From Promethearchaeota archaeon (GTDB taxonomy: Archaea > Asgardarchaeota > Lokiarchaeia > Sigyniarchaeales > SOKP01), in contig JAHLWP010000007.1 in assembly GCA_019057865.1 (NCBI GenBank), positions 75,005 through 139,004 of the forward strand: DNA of 64,000 bases. The letters run 5' to 3'. This document shows positions 42,554 through 56,876 of the stretch, one piece after another. The first letter of the stretch is position 1, and each line of letters starts with the position of its first letter. A program made the position numbers and the translations under genes. The notes beneath the pieces were generated by a model. That model was not told the DNA's origin. It made no database searches and saw nothing but the letters and a program-made list of their open reading frames with translations.

Positions 42554-42709
42554 TTATTTATTATTTAAATTTTTTTTCTTTAGTTGAAATTCACTGCATA
42601 CATTTATTGCTTTAGAATCATTACAATTAAAATTCTTAGGCAAAATACAAGAATCATAAAAAGGACAATTAATTCTCATTTTCGACCTTTGATTTGATTG
42701 TTCACTCAT
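42554..42709 (-). CDS. Small 4-Cys protein (51 aa), not in ORF track
   Basis: GGTGA RBS; MSEQSNQRSKMRINCPFYDSCILPKNFNCNDSKAINVCSEFQLKKKNLNNK. Confidence 0.5.
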   Translation of the reverse strand: MSEQSNQRSKMRINCPFYDSCILPKNFNCNDSKAINVCSEFQLKKKNLNNK

Positions 42710-42820: not shown

Positions 42821-42988
42821 TTATTTACAACAATTTTCACAGATAAACTCATCCAAATCTATGTAACCACAGGATTCTCCCATATAACACTCCAACGCTC
42901 CAGTTTCTTCATTAATAATCATATCTTGACCACAATGTTGTGGAAGCGTCTCAACAATATTTCCGCATTTAATACATTTTAATTCCAT
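42821..42988 (-). CDS. Small Cys/His/Met-rich putative metal-binding protein (55 aa), not in ORF track
   Basis: AGGTGA RBS; MELKCIKCGNIVETLPQHCGQDMIINEETGALECYMGESCGYIDLDEFICENCCK; directly downstream of copA. Confidence 0.8.
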   Translation of the reverse strand: MELKCIKCGNIVETLPQHCGQDMIINEETGALECYMGESCGYIDLDEFICENCCK

Positions 42989-43037
42989 AATTTGTATATC
43001 ACCTTTCTTTTAATTCATATCAATCATTACTACTTCT

Positions 43038-45920
43038 TTACTCAATCACTTCCATAGGTTTTCCGTGATGTTCTGGGATTTGCTGAGCACCACAAGATGC
43101 ACCCATCCAACAGACTAACTGGTCACCTTCCTTATGCATAGGCTTACCACAATGCATTGGAAGTTCTTGTTCTACTCCACATTCCACACATTTTAATTTT
43201 CCCATTTTTTTATCAACCTCTTTTTTATTTACAGATTTAACATACTTTTCATTAATACTTTTCATTTGCATTAATTTGGGATTCATATTATCATAATTCT
43301 TAAATCTTTCTGGATCACGTTTAAAGTGAGTTTCACAGTTAGGATTACAAAAGTGATATAGTTTCCCCTGATATTCATACTCAATAGCGCGTCTTGGATC
43401 AATTTCCATTCCGCATACAGGATCAATTACTTTTTCTTGAGATACAAGTAAACGTTCCTCTTCAAGTTGTTGAGGTGTTTTTGGTTCGAATCTTTTTAAG
43501 AACAAAGCATTGGTCACCACAGAAACAGAACTAGTAGCCATGAAAACTGCTGCTAAATAAGGAGGTAAAAAGAATCCTGTTAATCCATATAAAATACCCG
43601 CCGCAATAGGAAGTCCTATGATATTATAAATAAATGCCCAAAATAGATTCGTAATCATTTTTTTATACGTTTTTTTAGATAAATTAATAGCAGAAACCAC
43701 ATTTCTAAGGTCACCTCGCATTAGAACGATATCTGCAGTCTCAATTGCTACATCCGTACCAGATCCAATAGCAATGCCTACATCTGCTTGGGCTAAAGCT
43801 GGTGCATCATTAATTCCATCACCTACCATACCCACAATTTTGTGATCACCCGATTTTTGTAGTTTCTGTATAGTTAAAGCTTTATCATTTGGAAGAACCT
43901 CTGCTAATATGTGTTCCTCGTCAATTTTTAACTGATTTCCTATACTTAACGCGGTTTGCATATTATCACCAGTTAGCATATAAATGCTTAATCCAATTTC
44001 TCTTAATTTATTTAAAGCGTATGGAGCTTGATCTTTAATCTTATCAGAAATTCCTATAATTCCTCTAACAACATTTTCTATACTTACTAAGATTGTCGTT
44101 ATTCCTTTTTGCTGAAATTCTTCAAATTTGTCCTTGTATTTAAAGATCGAAATATTGTTTTCAATCATTAATTTTTCATTCCCAATCAATACTACTTTTC
44201 CTTTAATGTTAGTTCTGATACCTTTACCAAGGATAGCATCAAATTCAGTCGGAGCTTCAAGAGATAACCCTCTTTGATTTGACTCCTCGATAATTGCTTT
44301 TCCAATTGGATGTTCAGAGCCCATTTCTGCGCTCCCAGCATAAAATAAAAGTTCTTTTTCGTCATAACCTTTTCCAGTTAAATCTTTTTCAGCAAAAATT
44401 ACCGAAACTTTTGGTTTTCCAACGGTTAAAGTGCCAGTTTTATCGAATACGACTGTATTAATAGTATTAATGGATTCTAAGGAATCTCCACCTTTAATTA
44501 ATAAGCCACTTTCAGCACCTTTGCCAGTACCAACCATTACAGCGGTTGGAATTGCCAATCCTAAGGCACAGGGACAAGCAATAACTACAACTGAAGTGAA
44601 TACTAATAAAGATGTCTCAAGTTGAGTTGCTTCGAGTGCTGGATATAATTGAGTACCAATGAAATACCAATAAAGAAACGCGCTAACAGCAATAATAATG
44701 ACTATAGGTACGAAATAATTACTAATTTTGTCAGCTAATTGCTGCTTAGCAGCTTTTCGACTTTGAGCTTGTTTTACAAAATTGATGATTTGAAATAATA
44801 ATGTATCTTTTCCAACTTTTTCAGTTATCATATGAATTAAACCAGTTTGGTTTACTGTTGCCCCAATTACTTCACTATCAAGCTCTTTTTTAACATATTT
44901 ACTTTCTCCTGTAATCATAGATTCATCTATTTTAGTTTTTCCCACAATTACTCTCCCATCAACTGGAATTTTTTCTCCTGGTCTGACAACTAACACGTCT
45001 CCAACTTCAATTTCTTCAATAGGAATCTCTATTTCCTCGCCATCTTTTAAGATTGTTGCGGTTTTCGGTTGCAATCCTACTAATTTTTTTATAGCTTCAG
45101 ATGTCTGCCCTTTAGTCTTATGCTCAAGGTATTTTCCAACTAATAAAAAAGTGATTATCAAACTCATTGCTTCATAAAACACTTTTCCTGATATAAAGAA
45201 AGTGGTCATTATTGAGTAAATAAGTGCAGTCGTTGTCCCTAAAGCAACTAACACATCCATGTTAGTAGTTTTATTTTTTAATGATTTATATGCTCCGATT
45301 AAAAAAAACGACCCTGAAATAACGTAATTTGTTATCCCCAAAAAGAAAAGAAGGATGTTTCTTTCAAACGATTCTGTCACAAACCAACTTATAGGTGCAA
45401 TTATTAGTGAAAATATTAATGATATTGCCATGATGCGTAATCGATATCTCATTTCTTTCTTATGTTTTATAATTTCCATGTCCATAGCTCCAGCAGATTT
45501 CTCAATGTTATAATCTAGTTGTTTAACTTTAGAATATACTTGGTTTTCATCTATAACTAATTCATTAAATTCAATGAACATCTTAGATGCTTTATAATTT
45601 CCCCTGATGTCATGAATTCCTTCGACCTCTTTTATACTATTAATAAAAATTTCAAATTCATTTTCTGAAAGTTTATCTACAACTCTTATATCGATTTTGG
45701 CTAAGGATGCCTTGTAACCAAGATCTCGAATTGCTTCTTTAAAGTTATTGAAATTAGTTATATTTGGATCATATTTGACTGTCGCTTCTTCATTAGCAAA
45801 ATTAACAACTGCATTCTTCACACCATCAAGACTACTCAATTTATTCTCAATTTTTAAGGCACAATTAGCACATGTCATTCCACCAAGCTTAATATTTACA
45901 TTTTCTTTTGTTTCTGCCAT
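43038..45920 (-). CDS. copA: Cu(I)-exporting P1B-1 ATPase with N-terminal HMA, C-terminal YHS/TRASH and an extra Cys/His/Met domain
   Basis: GMTCANC, TGES, CPC, DKTGT, HP, GDGIND, YN, MATSS; DPVCGM...YHFCNPNC. Confidence 0.95.
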
Positions 45921-46534
45921 TAAAAATCACCTTTTTTCATATTTCTAGATAACAAATTTAATAATTATACCTTTTGTTTATATTTTGAAAGATTTTTAAA
46001 TCATATTTTTTGAGACTTGTAAAAAAATCTTATAGATTTGTTATTTTTTAAAAATAAAATTTAGAATAAAACCTGATTACTTATAAACAATTAAAATAAC
46101 ATATTTTTTTCATAACATTTTTTTAAAAATTTTTTTAAAAATCTTAAACTTTCTTCTTACAATAAATATTTCTATAAACTTAATTTTTTTTTAAATTTCT
46201 AAAAACTTTTATCTCATTTTATAGTTTCTTGTTTCAAAATGAAAATTTAATAATACACCCTCCACCTTGATTCTAATTGTCAATTATTGAGTTATTATTA
46301 AAAAAATCCGAGATTGAAACAAAAGTCTCTATTTTTTAGTTTATAAAATTATTTTGACGTAATATTTAAAATTATGTAGTAAAGGTGTTCTTAAAACTAT
46401 TATAAACCCAGAATAATAATTTTTTTACAACCTTTATCAGGTTGCTTAGTTCTACTCCTTTGTAGTTAATAAGAAGATATGAAAAAGAAAATAAAATGAT
46501 AATAATTAACTAAATTATCTCAATTTTTTATTTC

Positions 46535-48616
46535 TTATTTCTTTAACTTTAGAAATCTTGCATTAATGGCAACGATAACCGTGCTTAAAGACATAAGAAT
46601 TGCCCCAATTGCAGGAGTAATTAATACTCCGAGACTAAATAGAACTCCTGCGGCAAGCGGAATCGCAAAAACATTATAACCTGTTGCCCATATAAGATTT
46701 TGAATCATTTTCTTATAGGTTGCTTTTCCAAATCCTATAAGAGAAGTTACATCTCTTGGATTACTATTTACGAGAATGATGTCAGCAGTTTCAGCTGCAA
46801 CATCAGTGCCTGATCCAATTGCAATTCCTACATCTGCTTGAGCTAAAGCAGGAGCATCATTAATTCCATCACCAGTCATTGCTACAAATTCACCTTTAGA
46901 TTGTAACTCTTTAACCTTTTCTAACTTTTCATGAGGAAGTACTTCAGAATAATATCCATCAAGACTTAATTCCTCTGAGACGGCTTTAGCAGTTTTTTCA
47001 TTATCACCTGTTAACATCCAACATTTAATATTCATAGATTTTAAATTCTTAATAGCATCATGAGATTCTTCACGGACTTGATCAGAAAGACTAATAGCCC
47101 CGATTAATTTATTCTCACCCAAAAGCACAAATACGACAGTATCTATTGATCCTCTTCTCAAATTTTTTGGGATCGGGATGTCTAGGGCTTTCAAATAATT
47201 TGGACTAATAACACTAACAAGTTCTCCATTGATAGTTCCTTCAACACCTTTTCCCTTGATAGCTTTAAAATCCAAAGGTTGTTGTAGGGTAAGATTCATT
47301 TTATGTGCTTTTTCTACTATTCCCTTTGCAATTGGATGCTCAGAATTTTGTTCTAACGAAGCTGTTAGTTGAATAATTTTCTGCTCATCATAATCATTAT
47401 CAAAGGATTGTATGACATTTACACCAAAAGCACCCTCTGTTAAAGTTCCCGTTTTATCAAACAAAATGGTGGAAATTTTTCTAGAAGCTTCGAAAGCTGT
47501 TCGATTTCTAATCAATAAACCACTTTTTGCAGAGAGGGCAGTCGACATTGCCACTACCAGAGGTATCGCTAATCCAAGCGCGTGTGGACAGGCAATAACC
47601 ATTACTGTTGCCATTCTCTCAATTGAAAAATTAAAAGACTCTCCAATAGATAACCAGATAAATAAGGTGGTGAATCCAACAGTCAAGGCTATAATAGTAA
47701 GCCAAAAAGCAGCTCTATCAGCAAGTCGTTGAGTTTTTGATTTGGAGGCTTGTGCTTCTCTCACTAAATTAATTACTTTTGATAAATATGAATCCTTCCC
47801 TGTACTTTCTACTTGAATTTCAAGAGACCCATCACCATTAACAGACCCCCCGATAACCAAGTCTCCACTCTCCTTTTCAACTGGTACTGATTCTCCTGTT
47901 AACATGGACTCATCAATATAGCTCGAACCTTTTAAAATTAATCCATCGGATGGTATTTTTTCACCAGGCCTTATTAAGACATTGTCTCCTTTTTTTAATT
48001 CACTAAGCTCTACGTCAATGATCTCTCCATCTCTTATTTGATGAGCTGTCGATGGCATTAACTCCACCAACTTTTCTAAAGCTCGAGACGCTCCTAAAAT
48101 TGATTTCATTTCGATCCAATGCCCTAAGAGCATAATATCAATTAATGTTGCTAATTCCCAAAAAAAAGGATCTCCTTCTAATCCCAAAACAGTAGCAGCA
48201 CTATAAAAGTATGCGACAGAAATAGCTACCGCAATCAATGTCATCATTCCAGGAGCTTTTTTCCTTAACTCGTTCACAAGACCTTTAAGAAATGGCCATC
48301 CTCCATAAAAGAAAATAAAGGATGCCATAATCAGTAATACATAATCTAAACCGGGAAATGTGATACTCACTCCTAACCATCCTTGTATAGTGGGAGATAA
48401 TATAAGTATAGGAATAGTAACAATTAGTGAGACATAAAATCTTCGCCGAAAATCTTTTATCATCATTCTATGGTGAGCAGATTGATCCATATGTCCTTTA
48501 TGTTCAGCTTTATTCGAACTATGAGTATCATGAGAATTTATTCCATTCATATTTTTATCTGATACTACAGTGGGTTTATCTTGTTTTTTTTCTTTAACTT
48601 TATTATTATTTTTCAT
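46535..48616 (-). CDS. copB: P1B-3 copper-exporting ATPase with His-rich N-terminus
   Basis: His-rich N-terminus, PGMMTL, HWIEM, CPHALG, DKTGT, GYN, MSLST. Confidence 0.93.
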
Positions 48617-48715
48617 CTTTTACCATCGATTCTTTTTCTATCAAATATTTTTTTTTACTATTTGTTATAAATTTTTTATTTATAATTTAAATATAATTAA
48701 AATAAAATGGTTACT

Positions 48716-48931
48716 TTAATCTAATCCAATGTGTTCAATTACATTTCTAAGTTTTTGAGCAGATTTTTTAAAGTAATCTTCTTCTTTCAAGTTTAGGGCA
48801 ATTTTCAACACACGCGATACACCTAATTTGTTTATAATCGCAGGTAAACCTAAATAGACTTTGTTTATGCCTAAGTAGTTTCTTTTAAAAAGGAGTCTAA
48901 CGCGGAGAGAAAGCCGGATATTAATTATCAT
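48716..48931 (-). pseudogene. C-terminal remnant of a lactate/malate dehydrogenase
   Basis: YLGINKVYLGLPAIINKLGVSRVLKIALNLKEEDYFKKSAQKL matches the LDH/MDH C-terminal pattern; no Rossmann domain upstream. Confidence 0.7.
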
Positions 48932-49082
48932 AAATCTTATTTAACTTTACATAATTTTTGCAAAAAATTAATACACCGTCCATAGTCAAGGCCCAAAAGT
49001 TTTCAATCATTCTATTTTCATCTCTATGTAAATTTAATTTTACTATTTTATTTATGCAAATAAAAACGTAAAATAATTAAAT

Positions 49083-49352
49083 TTTTCTTCTCAGTCTTTA
49101 AATTCAAGTATTGTATATTTTGCAGTTTCTTCATTTGCAATTAAGACTGCTATGGATCCTCATATTATAAAAACAATAAAAGTTAAAAAATTTAATTCTT
49201 CTAATAAAATTCACTTGAGGTTAGCACAACTTTCGCAAGACGCTCTTAAAATAACTAAAAAGATCATTGAAGATAGTCATGAAGATTTAATAACAAATTT
49301 GAATAACTTTAAGGAATAAATTGATAAAACAGTAGCTAAACTGTATTTAGGA
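49083..49352 (+). pseudogene. C-terminal remnant of a type IIG/N6-methyltransferase specificity region
   Basis: Reads SLNSSIVYFAVSSFAIKTAMDPHIIKTIKVKKFNSSNKIHLRLAQLSQDA...FKE-stop-IDKTVAKLY; internal TAA, upstream part missing. Confidence 0.6.
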
Positions 49353-49769
49353 ACCACAACCAAACCAAGGCTTCTCGTCCTTTTTAGTCTGCTGTGCAAC
49401 ATTGAATCTGTTCAAACCTGAATAAATGTCAATAATTGCATATATCTCAGTTAAAGCTTCGTCATCCAAACCATTGTTTGATACTGCTCCATTATAAACA
49501 TCAATACAATAGTTAGATCCGCTCATTATTGAGACGGTAAGAGCAATAATGTCTTTGGTGTTTTTATCAAGCTTGCCTTCTTTGGTCATGACTGCCTGAA
49601 CTCTATTCCAAGTTAATTCCAAATAATCAGGGTTCAACGCCATAGCTTTGTACATGTTAGGGATAAAATCTATTCCTAATGTTTTCTTAATGTCATCATA
49701 AATCATTCGCACTTTTCCTGCTGCAGTTGATTCATCTACAACATCCGTAGTCGTACATTTTTCTGTCAT
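49347..49769 (-). CDS. Carboxymuconolactone decarboxylase/AhpD family protein
   Basis: IYDDIKKTLGIDFIPNMYKAMA.NPDYL, KDIIALTVSIMSGSNYC. Confidence 0.8.
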   Translation of the reverse strand: MTEKCTTTDVVDESTAAGKVRMIYDDIKKTLGIDFIPNMYKAMALNPDYLELTWNRVQAVMTKEGKLDKNTKDIIALTVSIMSGSNYCIDVYNGAVSNNGLDDEALTEIYAIIDIYSGLNRFNVAQQTKKDEKPWFGCGS

Positions 49770-49910
49770 AAGAAAAATATTAATTCTTTAATTTATAAAC
49801 GTAATCCATTTAATTTATAATATATTGATTGTAGGAGCAATTATCAGAACAATCAATATCTTCACTTATTTTTCTTATTTCAAGAACAGAATCAAGATCT
49901 ACTATTTTGA

Positions 49911-50252
49911 TTAAATTTCACTTCCGCAAAATGGACAATATTTTTGTGTTCTTTCATCGAGTTTTTCTCCACAATTAGGACAGAAATAAGCATTTTCACT
50001 TTTCAGTTTTTCTTCAATTCCTTTATCTGATGTAATTCTCTGTAAATTTCGAGTTTCTATTTTATTAGATTTTTCATTGTTATATGCTTCTTGATGTGAG
50101 ATGTCTGTTAAATTATCCTGACGAGTTCTTCGAGATAGAAGATATAAAAGAATTACAGCAATTATAACAAAAAGACTGACTCCTAAAATCATGTAGAACC
50201 ATCCATTTGAACCCCAATCCATCATACCATCATGACCATAATCTAACATCAT
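49911..50252 (-). CDS. Single-TM protein with N-terminal His/Met motif and C-terminal zinc ribbon
   Basis: GHDGMMDW, one TM, FCPNCG...YCPFCG. Confidence 0.75.
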   Translation of the reverse strand: MMLDYGHDGMMDWGSNGWFYMILGVSLFVIIAVILLYLLSRRTRQDNLTDISHQEAYNNEKSNKIETRNLQRITSDKGIEEKLKSENAYFCPNCGEKLDERTQKYCPFCGSEI

Positions 50253-50272
50253 TAATCCACCCTATACTTATG

Positions 50273-50569
50273 TTAATTTCTATTTCCATTTGCTTTTTTA
50301 TTTAAATGGCTTTCTTCATAATTTCCTCTGACAAGTAAATAAACTAATAACCCTAATACATTAAAAATTAAGGATATTATTAGCCACACTTCAGAATTGC
50401 CAATTCCTCTCCTAATGGCATCTTTATGGACATAATAGGCAATTGTAACACTAAATATGATATAAAGACTTATTCCTAATACCATAACGAGCCATAGATA
50501 GGGACCAAATATACTATACCACCAATCCATCATGTGAAAATCTCCATCATGAAAGCTATCGAAAATCAT
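50273..50569 (-). CDS. Small membrane protein (PLDc_N-like) with N-terminal His/Met motif
   Basis: FHDGDFHMMDWW; YVHKDAIRRG...WLII..IFNVLGLLVYLLVR. Confidence 0.75.
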   Translation of the reverse strand: MIFDSFHDGDFHMMDWWYSIFGPYLWLVMVLGISLYIIFSVTIAYYVHKDAIRRGIGNSEVWLIISLIFNVLGLLVYLLVRGNYEESHLNKKANGNRN

Positions 50570-50613
50570 TTTACCACCTATTTTAACAAGTTTTATTAAA
50601 GTATTATCTTAAG

Positions 50614-50635
50614 ATATATATGTAAAAGTATGTAT
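50614..50635. promoter_or_regulatory. Putative operator, copy 1, overlapping a minus-strand TATA box
   Basis: ATATATAT-gtaaaa-GTATGTAT followed by TTAAA; flanks match those at 56305-56360. Confidence 0.6.
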
Positions 50636-50956
50636 TTAAAAATTATTATTATAAAATATATATAATTAGAAAATTCTATGTAAGTGTATTTATTTTTATA
50701 GAGCTAATATTTAATTTTTTAAAAGGAGGATAAATGTGAATAGTTATTTAAGATTATAACCTAAGGAGTATGAATCATATTAAGTATAATGTTAATTTAT
50801 AGAAAGAGTCTTTTTTTTTTTAAAAATATATAGATTAAAGTATTATTTCAATTACAATTTATTTCTACTAATTGATTTGACAATATTAATTTATATTTCT
50901 GTATTTATGGATTTTTTACATATTATGGGATTCTTATTTTTCTAATTTCACCACAA

Positions 50957-51040
50957 CTACAGATCTACTGCTTCTAATCCTTCTCGAAATGCTAAAAATG
51001 TTGGAATTAAAAAATCCACAAATGAACCTTGTAAAATCAT
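50957..51040 (-). pseudogene. 5' remnant of an FTR1-family iron permease
   Basis: MILQGSFVDFLIPTFLAFREGLEAVDL-stop; REGLE is the FTR1 TM1 signature. Confidence 0.65.
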
Positions 51041-51062
51041 ATTAGTTTTCTTTTTTTTAATG

Positions 51063-51272
51063 TTAATTGATTTTATAATTACGTACTTTTTTACTGCAGA
51101 TTGGACATTTATAATAATAGGTCTTATATTTTCTTTTTCTTCCCATAACTGTCTCTGTATTTATGATTCTTTCTTTCACACATTTCAAGTGGAAATTATT
51201 AATACAATCTGGGCATTGGAAAATTTGATCTTCTTCGCCTATAAATTTATCATAATATTTGCATTTATGCAT
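51063..51272 (-). CDS. Small PHD/RING-variant-like zinc finger (C4HC3 spacing, second Cys replaced by Tyr)
   Basis: CKYY...CPDC.NNFH.KC...CPIC. Confidence 0.6.
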   Translation of the reverse strand: MHKCKYYDKFIGEEDQIFQCPDCINNFHLKCVKERIINTETVMGRKRKYKTYYYKCPICSKKVRNYKIN

Positions 51273-51291
51273 AGTTAATTCAAATTTTAGA

Positions 51292-51972
51292 CTATTTTGG
51301 CTTAGATATTATTACTCGTATAATTCCAGCAGGATCAAGGGACCATTCATGAATTACACTAAATCCTGCTCTTTCAAGGTTGTTTAATGTGTTTCTAGTG
51401 AGGTGAAATCCCCGCATATTAGCTGTTATTGGATCAAATGCTCTCATGAAGATGTTTAATAATTTGGAATTGCTTATTCCATGCTCAATTTGAACAAATT
51501 TCCCTGATGATTTCAATACCTTAGCTATTTCTTGAAGACCTTTTAATGGATCAGGAACTGAACAAAAAACACAAGTAGAAGTTATGAAGTCAAAAGAATT
51601 TGGTTCAAAATAATTATTTAATTTTTGAATATCCCCTATAACAAAGTTTTTAATATTATGAAGCTCTAATCTTTTTACTTTCATTTTAGTTTGACGGATC
51701 ATCTGTGGGCTCCAATCAAAAACAGTAATATTTGCAGAAGGATGGTAGTATTTTAAATTTTCTCCAGTTCCTACACCAACTTCGAGTATTTTTCCTCTTA
51801 ATAATGAAAAAATAGTTCTTCCTTTCGAAAATAAACGCTCCATAAGTGAATTCATTATATCATAAGTAGGAGCTTGTCTATCATATATTTCTAATATGGG
51901 ATCTATATCTGACATTGTTTTGAAACCTCTAAAAAGTTTATTCTTAGTTTTATTTGAGACATTTTTCCGCAA
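51292..51972 (-). CDS. Class I SAM-dependent methyltransferase (true start may be ATG at 51915)
   Basis: ILEVGVGTG, FDFITSTCVFCSVPDP, LKSSG, IEHG. Confidence 0.88.
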   Translation of the reverse strand: MRKNVSNKTKNKLFRGFKTMSDIDPILEIYDRQAPTYDIMNSLMERLFSKGRTIFSLLRGKILEVGVGTGENLKYYHPSANITVFDWSPQMIRQTKMKVKRLELHNIKNFVIGDIQKLNNYFEPNSFDFITSTCVFCSVPDPLKGLQEIAKVLKSSGKFVQIEHGISNSKLLNIFMRAFDPITANMRGFHLTRNTLNNLERAGFSVIHEWSLDPAGIIRVIISKPK

Positions 51973-52011
51973 CCTGATTTTTAAGATAGTCTAAAAATTT
52001 ATTACTCTAAA

Positions 52012-52033
52012 ATATATATGAATAAGTATATAT
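52012..52033. promoter_or_regulatory. Putative operator, copy 2
   Basis: ATATATAT-gaataa-GTATATAT followed by ATAAA, upstream of the minus-strand methyltransferase. Confidence 0.55.
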
Positions 52034-52064
52034 ATAAATGTATATATTATAATTTTATAGTTAT

Positions 52065-52232
52065 TTATAAAATTCTAATTGGGGCAGATTCTTTATCATC
52101 ATGCTTTATTGTTTTTACAATGGTGTAATTATCAATTTTAGGATCAAAGTTAAAATATTTTTCACATACCTTACAGTATAATCTTTTATTTTTTGGAATT
52201 AATATATTATCACAATATGGGCAGAATCTCAT
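52065..52232 (-). CDS. TFS/RPB9-like N-terminal zinc ribbon only (55 aa; truncated or short paralog), not in ORF track
   Basis: MRFCPYCDNILIPKNKRLYCKVCEKYFNFDPKIDNYTIVKTIKHDDKESAPIRIL. Confidence 0.6.
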   Translation of the reverse strand: MRFCPYCDNILIPKNKRLYCKVCEKYFNFDPKIDNYTIVKTIKHDDKESAPIRIL

Positions 52233-52309
52233 AATTTCCCTTTATAAAATATAATTATATTCTCTATTTGTATATATTTTTAGACAATGTTTTAAGAAAA
52301 TTTTGAAAG

Positions 52310-52867
52310 TTAAATAAAGCGCCTAACTTTTTTACGATATTTATTATACTCATCTTTGAACTGTTCTTTTAACCATGGTTCTTCTGTAAACGGAGTAAGA
52401 AAATTCCACAAAATTCCTAAAATGCCTGTAATCAAAGTTAAAAAGGAATTAGCTAGTATTATCAATCCGGCAAATAATAAAATATCGGCTAAATATTGGG
52501 GATTTCTTGAATATTTATAGGGCCCATCTGTGACTAATTTCCCTTTTAACCCGAGGGTCAAGTGAATACTTAAAGTTCTTACTCCCCAGATCGCAAAAAA
52601 TAATCCCACAACTATTAATGATAACCCAATTGGGTACCGAGACCAATGTAATAAAATAAAATTATCCCAATCCAAAATACTTAATGTAATTGTTCCTAAG
52701 AAAGAAATTATTGATACAATCCATGATATCCAAAATTGCCATGAATCTTTGTTTGGTGGAGGCCATATCCTATATTTTGGTTTGATTATTGTGAAAATAA
52801 GCCCTCCCACAAGTAATATATCTGCAATAACAGTCATAATAAATATTAAAATTGTTAAAGATCCCAT
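52310..52867 (-). CDS. PEMT/ICMT-family membrane methyltransferase
   Basis: LVTDGPYKYSRNPQY, EEPWL..QF..EY..Y...V.RFI. Confidence 0.88.
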   Translation of the reverse strand: MGSLTILIFIMTVIADILLVGGLIFTIIKPKYRIWPPPNKDSWQFWISWIVSIISFLGTITLSILDWDNFILLHWSRYPIGLSLIVVGLFFAIWGVRTLSIHLTLGLKGKLVTDGPYKYSRNPQYLADILLFAGLIILANSFLTLITGILGILWNFLTPFTEEPWLKEQFKDEYNKYRKKVRRFI

Positions 52868-52963
52868 AATTCTTACACCCCCTTATTTTAAACCTATTTT
52901 TTTAATAAATGATATATTTTTCCATTCTTTCTTCAAGTTCTCTTCACTTAACCTGTTAAATCA

Positions 52964-53266
52964 CTAAGATAATAATAAATCCCCTAAAGGAATATCAAGT
53001 TCAATTTCAGAACTCTTTATTTTTCTCACAAATTTCCTAAAACCATAATCATTAAATATCAATTCTAGAAAGTTTTGATAGAGCGCTTCTATATTATCCA
53101 TACCTATTTTGATAAAAAGATCGTTCTCTTTAGAAGCAATGATACTTAGAATTGCATAAAGCCCTTTTATCGATCTTTTAAGATTCTCAAAGTTATTAAT
53201 TGCTTTTTGAGTTGACTCTCTCGTAAATTTTGTTATAATAATAGTTATCACACCCCAATTAATCAA
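52964..53266 (-). CDS. Hypothetical protein, coupled to the upstream TRASH-like gene
   Basis: 100-aa ORF overlapping 53263-53496 by 4 nt; start uncertain. Confidence 0.55.
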   Translation of the reverse strand: MINWGVITIIITKFTRESTQKAINNFENLKRSIKGLYAILSIIASKENDLFIKIGMDNIEALYQNFLELIFNDYGFRKFVRKIKSSEIELDIPLGDLLLS

Positions 53267-53496
53267 AATTGATTAGAATTGTTTTCTTTAACTATTTCTG
53301 TTTCATAAATTGAAAGGCACCTAGAACAACAGAAATATAACATTTTTTCGTCTTTATCTTTATACGTTGGTGCAGATAAATGTACAGGAATTCCCATACC
53401 CCATAATGTACAATATTCATGCACATCTGCATCAGATCTTATAGTTTTACTACAAATTGGACATAATTTCTCTTTCAAAAATATAACCTCCATCAA
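53263..53496 (-). CDS. TRASH/YHS-like metal-binding protein
   Basis: CPIC...YCTLWGMGIP...LYFCCSRC; GGAGGT RBS suggests a start a few codons downstream. Confidence 0.65.
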   Translation of the reverse strand: MMEVIFLKEKLCPICSKTIRSDADVHEYCTLWGMGIPVHLSAPTYKDKDEKMLYFCCSRCLSIYETEIVKENNSNQF

Positions 53497-53544
53497 TCAA
53501 TTCAACTTTTAATATTTATAAAAAAAATTAATTATTTTTAATAA

Positions 53545-53709
53545 TTAAATAAAATTCATTTGTAGACCACAATGCTCAGGGATGGGTTGAACACCACAGT
53601 GAGATCCCATCCAACAGACTAGTTTATCGCCTTCTTTATGCATAGGTTTACCACAATGCTGTGGTATATCCATTTCATAACCACACTTAGAACACTTTAA
53701 CTTTTCCAT
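53545..53709 (-). CDS. Small Cys/His/Met-rich putative metal-binding protein (54 aa), not in ORF track
   Basis: [54 protein letters not shown]; 27 nt after the copA stop. Confidence 0.85.
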   Translation of the reverse strand: MEKLKCSKCGYEMDIPQHCGKPMHKEGDKLVCWMGSHCGVQPIPEHCGLQMNFI

Positions 53710-53736: not shown

Positions 53737-56250
53737 TTATTTATTCGTCTTGTAATTTGGAAGTATATTCGACCTACGAAGCAGATTAGCATTTGTTACT
53801 ACAGTTACCGAACTTGTAGCCATGGCAACCTCTGCGATTAATGGGTGAGCTAATCCTAACATAGCAGCAGGTAATGCCACTACATTATAAAAGAAGGCCC
53901 AAAACAGATTCTGTTTGATTTTCTTGAAAGTATTTCTAGATAATTTTATTGCTGAAACAACTCCAGATAAATTCCCACTAACTAATGTAATATCGGCGGA
54001 TTCAATTGCAATATCTGTTCCGGTACCAATTGCAATTCCTACATTGGCCGCTGTTAAAGCAGGAGCGTCATTTATTCCATCGCCCACCATAGCTACTAGT
54101 TTTCCATTTTCTTGTAATCTTTGAATCTCATTAACTTTTTCATCAGGTAATACCTCAGCTATAACTTTTGAAATGCCTATTGCTTTTGCTATTGCTTTTG
54201 CAGTGAGTTCATTATCTCCTGTTAACATCACTGTTTCAATTCCCATACCTTCCAACTCCCTAATAACTTCAATAAAATCGTCTTTAATTGTATCTGCTAT
54301 TGCTAAGATTCCAACCATTTTCCCGTCGACAGCTAATAATATAACTGTTTTTGCTTCTTTTTCAAGAGATTCAATATCTCCCTCCATAAAATGATATTCG
54401 ATTTGAAATTCTTGCATTAATTTCCGATTCCCTACAAGGATTAATTTTTCCGGAGTTGTTTTAATCTTTGCTTTTACACCTCTTCCAGTTAGAGATTCAA
54501 ACTCTATTAAATCGTAATATTCAATATTTTTTTCTTTTGCCTTTCTTAAAACTGCATCAGCAAGAGGATGCTCGGAACCTGCTTCTACACTCGCTGCAAA
54601 CTGAAGTACTTCTTCGAATGTAAAACCCTCAGCAAAACGTATATCAGTTACTTCGGGTGATCCTTTAGTAATCGTTCCCGTTTTATCAAAAACAATAGCG
54701 TCAATACTTTTAAGGGTTTGAATTGCCTCACCGTGTCTTATTAAGATTCCATGTTCCGCTCCCATACCACTGCCAACCATGAGTGCGGTAGGTGTTGCTA
54801 GTCCAAGCGCACAGGGGCACGCTATGATAAGCGTTGCGATTAATGCAAGTAATGCTAATGTTATTACTCCAAGATTTGGATCCACCCATGGTATGAATGA
54901 TTGAACCCCATTAATCACTATATCCATAACGTTAGGTAAAAACATCCATAAAAGAAAAGCAGCACTAGCTAATATTAACACTACAGGAACAAAATAATTG
55001 GTGATGGTATCAGCAAACTTTTGTATGGGAATTTTAGAACCTTGGCATTCCTCGACCATTTTAATAACCTGGGACAAAAATGTGTCTTCTCCTACCTTTG
55101 TAGCTTTAATCTTCAACATTCCACGTTGATTGATTGTCGCCCCTATAACTTCATCTCCAACTTTTTTCTTCACAGGCATAGATTCGCCAGTTGCCATAGA
55201 CTCATCAATAGCACTTTGTCCTTCGATAACAATACCATCAGTAGGAATTTTTTCTCCTGGTTTGACAAACATTATATCGTTTTCTTTTAATTGTTCAATA
55301 GGGATTTCTATTTCTTCTCCATCGATTATGATTCTAGCACTCTTTGCTCCAAGTTCTAGCAATTTTCTGATTGCTTGTGATGCTCTTCCTTTTGCTTTAG
55401 TTTCAATATACCTTCCAGTTAAATGAAAGGACATTATCATAGCAGCAACACCAGAATAATTAAAAATCGGACTAAAAAAGGACATTGGACCTGTTATAAA
55501 TGCTGAAATCGTTCCTAAAGCTATTAACACATCCATATTCGCATTACGATGCCTAATGGCTTTAAATGCGGAGTAATAGGTATTGTATCCTGCCCAAAAA
55601 AGTGGAAATATTGATAACAATATGATCCCTAAACTATATAATTCTTCATTAGGCCAATATATTCCCCCAATCATTTCCAACAACATCCAGCCAATAATTG
55701 GTCCAGTAAAGACCCAAGAAAGTTTCATTCGCTTTTTAGCTATCTTAAATTTTTTTTCTTCCGCTTCAACTTCCTTATCATATTTTGATTTAATTGACTC
55801 TTCTTCTTCCTTTCCGAGTGTTGTATAACCAGTATTATTAATTATCCTAGCAATATCATTATATTCTAGTCCATCTACATCGTAAATTACAACTGCTTTT
55901 TCAGTTGCGATATTAACACTTGCATTCAAAATACCATCGCTTTTTTTAAGAGCAGTCTCAACAGTTTGGGCACAAGATGCGCAAGTCATACCTTTGATTT
56001 TAATGGTAATTTTTTTTGAGTTTGTAGTTGCTTCATACCCTGTGTTTTTCACAATTTCTAAGATTTCTGATTTCTTTATCTTATCAGGATAATAAGTAAG
56101 ATATGCTTTTTCAGCAGCTAAATTAACATTTACATCATTTATTCCTTCATGTTTATTTAATGCTTTAGCAATTGTCTGAGCACATGAAGCACAATGCATT
56201 CCTTGAATATTTAGAACAGTTGTTTTTCCTTGTTCAATTTTTTCTATCAT
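53737..56250 (-). CDS. copA: Cu(I)-exporting P1B-1 ATPase with two HMA domains
   Basis: GMHCASC, GMTCASC, TGES, CPC, DKTGT, HP, GDGIND, YN, MATSS. Confidence 0.95.
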
Positions 56251-56441: not shown

Positions 56442-56876
56442 TTGAGTGATATTAAAATTCAAAATCTAACAAAATTTTATACCTTAACGTTATTGAAATC
56501 TAAAAAATCAGTTACTGGGTATTATATCATAAAGCGACTCGAATCGGATTTAGGGAAAACGGCAAGTCCAACCTACATATATGATTTCTTGAATAAACTC
56601 CAATCAGAAGGATATATCGAACACACCCCTAATCCAAAATCAAAAAAATCAAAAGGATTTCAATTAACTTCTTCAGGGAAACAATTTATTGATAATATTT
56701 TCAAACGATTTGGCAATTTAATAGAAGCTGCTATAGAATCAAAATTGAAAATATGTGCAAGCTGTGGTGTAAAACTTTATGAAGATTTTCATGTTGAAAC
56801 AATTGGAGGAAAAGAGATGAATTTTTGCTGCAAACATTGCGCAAAAGCATATATAAATTCTCACCATGAAAAATAA
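56442..56876 (+). CDS. PadR-family winged-helix regulator with C-terminal TRASH metal-binding domain
   Basis: TGYYIIKRL...SPTYIYDFLNKLQSEGYI...FQLTSSGK (PadR); CASCG...FCCKHC (TRASH). Confidence 0.85.
   Translation: MSDIKIQNLTKFYTLTLLKSKKSVTGYYIIKRLESDLGKTASPTYIYDFLNKLQSEGYIEHTPNPKSKKSKGFQLTSSGKQFIDNIFKRFGNLIEAAIESKLKICASCGVKLYEDFHVETIGGKEMNFCCKHCAKAYINSHHEK

Follow-up and report, generated by a model that had tools for sequence, protein, structure and literature searches.

A tandem desulforedoxin-like domain, free or fused to copper pumps, is conserved in Asgard archaea and may serve CopA as an accessory soft-metal domain

The copper pumps of many Asgard archaea are accompanied by a small Cys- and His-containing domain, here called the twin domain, that was recognized in a 64,000-nucleotide stretch of the genome of a Promethearchaeota archaeon (GTDB lineage Archaea; Asgardarchaeota; Lokiarchaeia; Sigyniarchaeales; SOKP01; assembly GCA_019057865.1, contig JAHLWP010000007.1, positions 75,005 to 139,004), hereafter referred to as the window. 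The domain is present there in three copies, one of them fused to the C-terminus of the pump CopA1 and two encoded by free open reading frames (ORFs) adjacent to copA genes. Sequence comparisons show it to be a genuine, strongly conserved family that is nearly confined to Asgard archaea. The most fitting description is that of two shortened desulforedoxin-like units in tandem within one chain, in which His replaces the first Cys of a CC pair. We consider it probable, at roughly 0.6, that the twin domain is an accessory soft-metal domain of the Cu(I)-exporting CopA pumps of these archaea, which would bind cytosolic Cu(I) and hand it over or report its load. Window coordinates are used throughout, and the genes of the copper island lie on the minus strand unless stated otherwise. 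The features that carry the argument are the following, where the letters HC or HH denote the ligand pairs of the first and second half of the domain.

53737..56250, minus strand: copA2, a P1B ATPase of the Cu type that has two HMA domains at its N-terminus and lacks a fused twin domain (Pfam HMA twice, E1-E2_ATPase and Hydrolase)
53545..53709, minus strand: free twin-domain ORF of 54 aa, HC/HC type (ORF list; homologues with E down to 8e-28)
43038..45920, minus strand: copA1, 960 aa, with HMA, Cu-type P1B core, YHS, linker and twin domain (Pfam and NCBIfam)
43296..43430, minus strand: YHS domain of CopA1, residues 831-875, immediately N-terminal of the linker and the twin domain (Pfam YHS, E 1.4e-13)
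43041..43205, minus strand: fused twin domain of CopA1, its C-terminal 55 residues, HC/HH type (ORF sequence and alignment)
42821..42988, minus strand: copy 3, a free 55-aa paralogue of the CENCC subfamily (ORF list and alignment)

The three copies were confirmed on the minus strand, with the coordinates and sequences of the original prediction. Their pairwise identity is 50-67%, with Cys, His, Met, Gly and Pro positions that are invariant among them. In copy 3 the first half is intact, and the second retains C-x-MG-x2-CG and terminates with C-E-N-C-C. Homologues in other genomes are 64-89% identical (E 8e-28 to 5e-18), the close ones being proteins of 54-55 aa from Asgard metagenome-assembled genomes (MAGs). 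Since NCBI and JGI records already carry these homologues, labelled 'hypothetical protein', the supposition that gene callers miss the domain turned out to be wrong. A family profile retrieved 162 clusters among 1.84 billion representative proteins, 66 of which were matched at E <=1e-10, and copy 3 belongs to a conserved subfamily of its own (67-96% identity among the matches listed from other loci). Over 193 domain instances, the positions C6, C9, P16, H18, C19, M23, C32, W33-M34-G35, C38, P44, H46, C/H47 and M51 are near-invariant. A chance origin of the copies is excluded by the homologues, the 162-cluster family and the copy 3 subfamily.

Pfam-A and NCBIfam scans of the copies and of CopA1 revealed no family that covers the twin domain. 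In particular, no HMA match was found with Pfam; the free copies are not matched by YHS/TRASH models (PF04945, PF08394, PF24273), and the YHS match in CopA1 covers only residues 831-875. The expectation that the domain would prove to be neither HMA nor TRASH nor YHS was thus borne out. The desulforedoxin model PF06397 gave no match to the free copies or CopA1 at E up to 1, and when searched against the whole genome it detected only one desulfoferrodoxin-like ORF (139 aa, contig 41) and none of the twin domains; NCBIfam TIGR00319 (desulfoferrodoxin FeS4) matched copy 3 with E 0.03, which is below its cut-off. Further echoes in family-library scans were to PriA (E about 0.1 to 2). Sequence searches of the PDB, with a single protein or with a profile, returned only rubredoxin and eS27 (E 0.03-0.3), and the search for a prior family assignment by Foldseek against the PDB gave nothing better than a match at E 1.0. 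A literature search on desulforedoxin-like domains of P1B ATPases or on Asgard copper chaperones found no description of such a domain.

The anatomy of the domain is that of an internal duplication, as had been proposed: profiles of the two halves align in hhalign with a probability of 97.8% (E 1.2e-12, 52% identity over 23 columns). Half 1 follows the pattern L-x-C-x2-C-G ... P-x-H-C-G-x-P-M, with C6, C9, H18 and C19 as candidate ligands, and half 2 the pattern L-V-C-W-M-G-x2-C-G ... P-x-H-[CH]-G-x2-M, with C32, C38, H46 and C or H47. For comparison with desulforedoxin, a profile was built from PF06397 matches within the same phylum. The whole twin domain aligns with this Asgard desulforedoxin profile with a probability of 91.4% (E 9e-7), and half 1 alone covers the entire 36-residue desulforedoxin unit (probability 93.6%, E 2e-7), so that C6/C9/H18/C19 fall on the iron ligands C9/C12/C28/C29, with a 7-residue loop deletion, and G-x-P-M falls on the desulforedoxin G-Q-P-M. 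A CusF-like Cu(I) site formed from the conserved Met residues was considered and rejected, as these belong to the desulforedoxin G-x-P-M signature. Where desulforedoxin has the first Cys of the CC pair, His stands in 167 of the 193 instances for half 1 and in 110 for half 2, and Cys in only 10 and 8, respectively.

An AlphaFold2 model of the free 54-aa copy, computed from a 50-row alignment, is all-beta with five short strands (predicted local distance difference test, pLDDT, 94). The best of 48,161 chains compared with VIA-align is Ga-desulforedoxin 1cfw, a weak match (Z 3.4) with a root-mean-square deviation of 2.3 A over 33 of 36 residues, and the nearest named ESM clusters are PF06397 with a score of 0.80-0.81, a lead only. 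The resemblance to desulforedoxin with one Cys exchanged for His, already suspected in the original prediction, has thereby found a profile-profile match, a best though weak structural match and a counterpart among the ESM clusters. Like desulforedoxin and the N-terminal domain of desulfoferrodoxin (PF06397; 1dxg, 1cfw, 1dfx), each half combines hydrophobic-x-C-x2-C-G, a beta hairpin, an adjacent ligand pair and G-x-P-M. Two units per functional module are likewise a shared trait: desulforedoxin is a homodimer, and the twin domain has its two units as a tandem repeat in one chain. It differs from desulforedoxin in the His that opens the CC pair, in an inter-knuckle loop shorter by 7 residues, in the C-x5-C instead of C-x2-C of unit 2, and in a genomic context of copper pumps rather than superoxide reductase. 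By profile comparison, the twin domain is therefore a remote relative of the desulforedoxin family and not a member of it. Regarding ligand topology, we consider one metal site per half more probable than an arrangement with C6/C9/C32/C38 in one site and H18/C19/H46/C47 in the other, because each half aligns with a whole desulforedoxin unit.

Association with copper pumps recurs far beyond the window. Of the 80 best loci from other species, 73 have the twin domain fused in frame to the C-terminal end of an ORF that resembles CopA (507-1084 aa), and eight such ORFs have it doubled in tandem; YHS precedes it in 77 of the 80, and an orthologue of a PadR-TRASH regulator lies beside copA in 28. Fused pumps with readable motifs all have the Cu-type CPC and SSVSVV. 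The CENCC subfamily, too, is conserved downstream of fused copA genes in other loci. In family f1, to which the genome of the window belongs, all assessable free copies directly follow copA. Family f16 shows another layout, in which the pump carries the twin domain, often doubled, at its N-terminus, followed by two HMA domains and the core, and a free copy of 69-72 aa lies directly upstream of the pump. The pattern of free and fused forms at Cu-type P1B ATPases, seen at first in a single contig, is thus repeated across many loci and genomes, although linkage to the pump is not universal: it is widespread as fusion (the 73 of 80) and in f1 and f16, and is missing in family f31 (0 of 20; see below). 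The same applies to the position of the domain. That it should always lie 3' of copA holds for the window, where 27 nt separate the copA2 stop from the start of the free 54-aa ORF and 49 nt the copA1 stop from the start of copy 3, which is preceded by a strong AGGTGA Shine-Dalgarno (SD) motif; it does not hold as a general rule, given f31 and two further copies in the genome of the window.

Fused and free forms also differ in their ligand pairs, the former being mostly HC/HH and the latter mostly HC/HC or CENCC, a shift that hints at tuned sites. In a quick tree, based on 57 columns and with few forks resolved, the free ORF of the window groups with the copA2-adjacent free copies of loci L149 and L151 (Shimodaira-Hasegawa-like approximate likelihood ratio test, SH-aLRT, 99), the CENCC forms make up a separate clade of 35 rows (SH-aLRT 99), and the free and N-terminally fused copies of f16 form one clade. 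In a model of the CopA1 tail comprising YHS and twin domain, the latter reaches a pLDDT of about 85 and the Lys/Glu-rich linker between them stays below 50; this linker is disordered, and the two domains show no confident mutual packing. A complex prediction for CopA2 and the free domain scored 0.00, which counts neither for nor against binding.

Pfam-visible partners in 50 representative proteins of at least 95 aa were TRASH (9), P-type ATPase parts (8), HMA (5), YHS (4) and a sigma-70 region-4 helix-turn-helix (HTH) domain (1). Several architectures without a pump were encountered as well. Seven metagenome proteins of 190-260 aa (P0034, P0038, P0061, P0072, P0085, P0088 and P0098) consist of an N-terminal module, TRASH and the twin domain; the module, of about 125 aa with a GFLSA..F motif and a weak Longin match, recurs in the window genome in at least 13 paralogues whose C-termini are different. 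P0037 fuses the twin domain with the sigma-70 region-4-like HTH, and in P0121 and P0155 the twin domain is C-terminal to long regions that match no family; these three proteins may be metal-responsive regulators. In a CopA-fused subfamily (P0069, P0077, P0080 and P0083), YHS is absent and the second knuckle carries the insertion C-W-M-N-L-x(4-6)-G-G-M-x(1-2)-C-G.

The copA1 gene may itself encode a second, free form of the domain. Its fused copy opens with an in-frame ATG that sits exactly at the start position of the free paralogues and is preceded by the following element, recognized in the sequence:

43216..43220, minus strand: GAGGT, an SD-like motif that precedes the in-frame ATG of the fused domain (43203-43205) by 10 nt

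Of 83 fused copies, 61 carry Met at position -5 relative to the first Cys. Among 62 such ATGs, 51 are preceded by an SD-like 4-mer in the interval from -16 to -4, as compared with 69 of 1447 (4.8%) other internal ATGs of the same ORFs; these counts come from related loci and overstate independence. The internal SD and ATG could be either a relic of the fusion or a second route to the free domain. In Escherichia coli, the chaperone CopA(Z) is produced from the copA gene itself, by frameshifting at its 5' end. The archaeal case would be similar in that a pump gene also yields a free metal domain, here from a conserved in-frame ATG with an SD-like motif, and different in that it would use internal initiation at the 3' end of copA and not 5' frameshifting.

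Of 400 genomes of the phylum, 280 contain the twin domain. Nearly all named records belong to Promethearchaeota (Asgard), with Promethearchaeia, Hod-, Hermod-, Thorarchaeota or Lokiarchaeota labels, the exceptions being one 'bacterium' MAG and one short contig labelled Bathyarchaeota. Its occurrence by family, compared with that of free HMA genes, is as follows.

Family f1 (that of the window): twin domain in 132 of 134 genomes; no free HMA gene, all 46 HMA matches of 41 genomes lying in ORFs of at least 255 aa
Family f16: twin domain in 21 of 22 genomes (22 of 22 with a broader profile); free HMA genes in about 4 of 22
Family f31: twin domain in 20 of 20 loci examined; free HMA genes in about 7 of 40 genomes
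Family f13: twin domain in 3 of 31 genomes; HMA genes of 70-100 aa directly beside copA in at least 27 of 31
Family f19: twin domain in 0 of 19 genomes; no clear free HMA gene
Family f24: twin domain in 0 of 7 genomes

In the genome of the window, which is 99.7% complete, no free CopZ was found, HMA being present only inside CopA1 and CopA2. Lineages that bear the domain mostly do without free CopZ, and f13, mostly without the domain, has a copZ-copA arrangement; this contrast rests on few independent lineages and is suggestive rather than statistical proof. Furthermore, the free twin-domain gene of f16 occupies the exact position of copZ in f13, directly upstream of copA. The twin domain probably replaces the usual copper chaperone in this archaeon and most of its relatives.

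We favour the following account of its function. The twin domain would be an independently folding all-beta unit of roughly 50 residues, made of two tandem desulforedoxin-derived knuckle pairs, each half of which would hold one metal ion by homology to desulforedoxin, with the ligand set proposed above. In cis, it would act from the C-terminus of CopA after YHS, as in CopA1, or from the N-terminus before HMA; in trans, its place would be taken by a free protein of 55 aa whose gene adjoins that of the pump. It may bind cytosolic Cu(I), possibly also Zn, and either transfer Cu(I) to the pump or signal the metal load to it, thereby taking the role that CopZ and HMA domains have elsewhere. The data agree with several functions, that of a chaperone or buffer being one, and a cis-acting regulatory or sensor domain fits equally well; the best-supported description is that of a soft-metal domain with two sites that is coupled, in tethered or free form, to the export of Cu(I) and may be a sensor, a regulator or a chaperone. 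A more specific scenario must be regarded as tentative: Asgards of the Loki, Hod, Hermod and Thor types would have replaced CopZ with a pseudo-dimeric single-chain desulforedoxin derivative, the Cys-to-His exchanges would have retuned two former iron sites for Cu(I), and the pump gene would give rise to both a tethered and an internally initiated free form.

A metallochaperone or pump domain is expected to occur free and fused, with the free gene beside the pump, and this was found for the twin domain with the exception of f31. As in the HMA/CopZ/Atox1 family (PF00403), one to several copies are borne on the terminus of the pump and a free single-domain paralogue is encoded beside it. Differently from HMA, with its beta-alpha-beta-beta-alpha-beta fold and its M-x-C-x2-C motif, the twin domain consists of all-beta knuckles with another ligand motif, is found together with HMA on individual pumps and may stand at the C-terminus. 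YHS and TRASH domains (PF04945, PF08394, PF24273) are likewise small metal modules that rely on Cys residues and occur on copper pumps and regulators of archaea, and they adjoin the twin domain in CopA tails and in the 190-260 aa proteins. They share no sequence match or motif with it, and the twin domain is always additional to them, never a substitute.

Several observations weigh against a role in Cu(I) export. In f31, a P-type ATPase lies within about 7 kb of the free gene in none of the 20 loci, and the gene instead belongs to a conserved row of a 2x[4Fe-4S] ferredoxin, an acyl-CoA dehydrogenase, the twin domain and a nitroreductase. Each f31 genome has one free copy, with the motif perfectly preserved, and its CopA consists of HMA, core and one or two YHS domains, without a twin domain. 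The row (L036-L055) encodes a ferredoxin of about 113 aa, an acyl-CoA dehydrogenase of 419 aa and a nitroreductase of 180 aa, after which it continues with a small membrane protein and a secreted protein of roughly 410 aa. The window genome, too, contains three more relatives beyond the three copies of the window. The first (L004:1489-1668, contig 14) is a free 59-aa all-Cys variant with CC in both halves and an extra Cys after C32, which lies among unrelated genes, with none for metal transport within about 1.5 kb, and may be a genuine redox protein of the desulforedoxin type. The second (L006:1498-2037, contig 5) is a 179-aa protein in which an N-terminal CENCC-type copy is fused to an SCP2 sterol-transfer-like domain; its gene adjoins a VapBC-like pair and a GDPD-like gene, likewise in surroundings unrelated to metals. 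The third (L005:1-1683, contig 53) is a Zn/Cd-type P1B ATPase, its best NCBIfam match being a zinc/cadmium/mercury/lead ATPase, with a degenerate half-copy at the C-terminus, where half 1 reads C-x2-C...P-x-H-H-G-x2-M and half 2 is replaced by a C...C-x2-C tail. In addition, a Cys3His site is in most cases a structural Zn site. The conserved Met residues belong to the desulforedoxin signature and hence probably lie in the core instead of binding Cu, and f19, having neither the domain nor a clear free CopZ, makes the complementarity of the two imperfect.

The strongest alternative, which we nevertheless regard as rather unlikely, is a structural double zinc ribbon with two permanently bound Zn ions, a module that would regulate the pump by autoinhibition, dimerisation or partner docking and would carry no copper. 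The CxxC and HC knuckles are typical of Zn sites, and the weak fold and sequence echoes of the twin domain are all zinc ribbons (MCM, the PriA CRR, ribosomal proteins and the RNA polymerase subunit Rpb9). The degenerate copy on the Zn/Cd-type pump L005 also fits a zinc ribbon, as does the attachment of the twin domain to a disordered linker of roughly 20-30 residues, which resembles the regulatory tails that other P-type ATPases carry (PMC11970713). However, its behaviour as a free or fused, N- or C-terminal and tandem module, together with its copZ position, mirrors that of a cargo-binding domain, and its repeated fusion to TRASH/YHS and to HTH is sensor-like. Moreover, the systematic shift of the ligand set from HC/HH in fused to HC/HC in free copies would be unexpected for a purely structural site.

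It seems improbable that the domain is a redox-active iron centre, which would shuttle electrons as a small carrier, sense the redox state or reduce Cu(II) to Cu(I) for the pump. CopZ of Archaeoglobus fulgidus, which has an N-terminal domain with [2Fe-2S] and Zn, offers a comparison for such a centre, and the remote homology to desulforedoxin, the f31 gene row with its ferredoxin, acyl-CoA dehydrogenase and nitroreductase, and the all-Cys variants away from pumps are all consistent with it. Nevertheless, the Cys-to-His exchange that defines the family in both halves departs from the Fe(Cys)4 site of the rubredoxin type, the PF06397 model does not recognize the twin domain, and the recognizable fusion partners are metal-transport and metal-sensing domains, not redox enzymes. 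The synteny of f31, for its part, is confined to one family and may be inherited gene order. Finally, the notion that the small ORFs are unexpressed and their similarity a relic of duplicated copA tails can practically be dismissed, as the free copies keep 60-89% protein identity across families with starts and stops intact, copy 3 stands in its own conserved clade, and strong SD motifs precede the ORFs.

A PadR-TRASH regulator divergent from copA2 marks this region of the window as a copper island. The match of copA2 to TIGR01525, CopA PRK10671 and TIGR01511 in NCBIfam was noted along with the following further features.

56442..56876, plus strand: PadR-TRASH regulator, divergent from copA2 (Pfam PadR, E 7e-10)
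53263..53496, minus strand: TRASH-like Cys protein of 77 aa, directly downstream of the free 54-aa copy (weak TRASH match, E 0.025)
46535..48616, minus strand: CopB-like P1B ATPase, the third of the island, located between copA2 and copA1; it has a CPH motif and is rich in His at the N-terminus (Pfam and NCBIfam)

In the regulator, the match to TRASH_HVO_1752_C is sub-threshold (E 3e-4, 21.4 bits against a cut-off of 27). The 77-aa ORF overlaps an ORF of 100 aa (together 52964-53496, minus strand), with no Pfam family at threshold, and L149 shows the same gene order of copA2, twin domain, 77-aa ORF and 100-aa ORF, with 74% identity. Between the 100-aa ORF and the CopB-like pump lie several small membrane and methyltransferase genes. 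Downstream of copy 3, a Cys-containing ORF of 51 aa (42554-42709, minus strand) matches no family; its position is kept in three other loci (L072, L082 and L099), with 86-88% identity.

The accessory metal domains of copper pumps, thought to be well known, have been catalogued as HMA, His-rich, YHS/TRASH and hemerythrin domains. If the reading favoured here is true, a structurally different domain, present throughout the lineage of archaea closest to eukaryotes, would be added to them, and copper handling may have recruited an iron-redox fold. As the 54-aa domain is tiny, confidently predicted and easy to express, its metal, its stoichiometry and its effect on CopA are directly testable, and the lineages with copZ and those with the twin domain would provide a natural experiment on the replacement of a chaperone.

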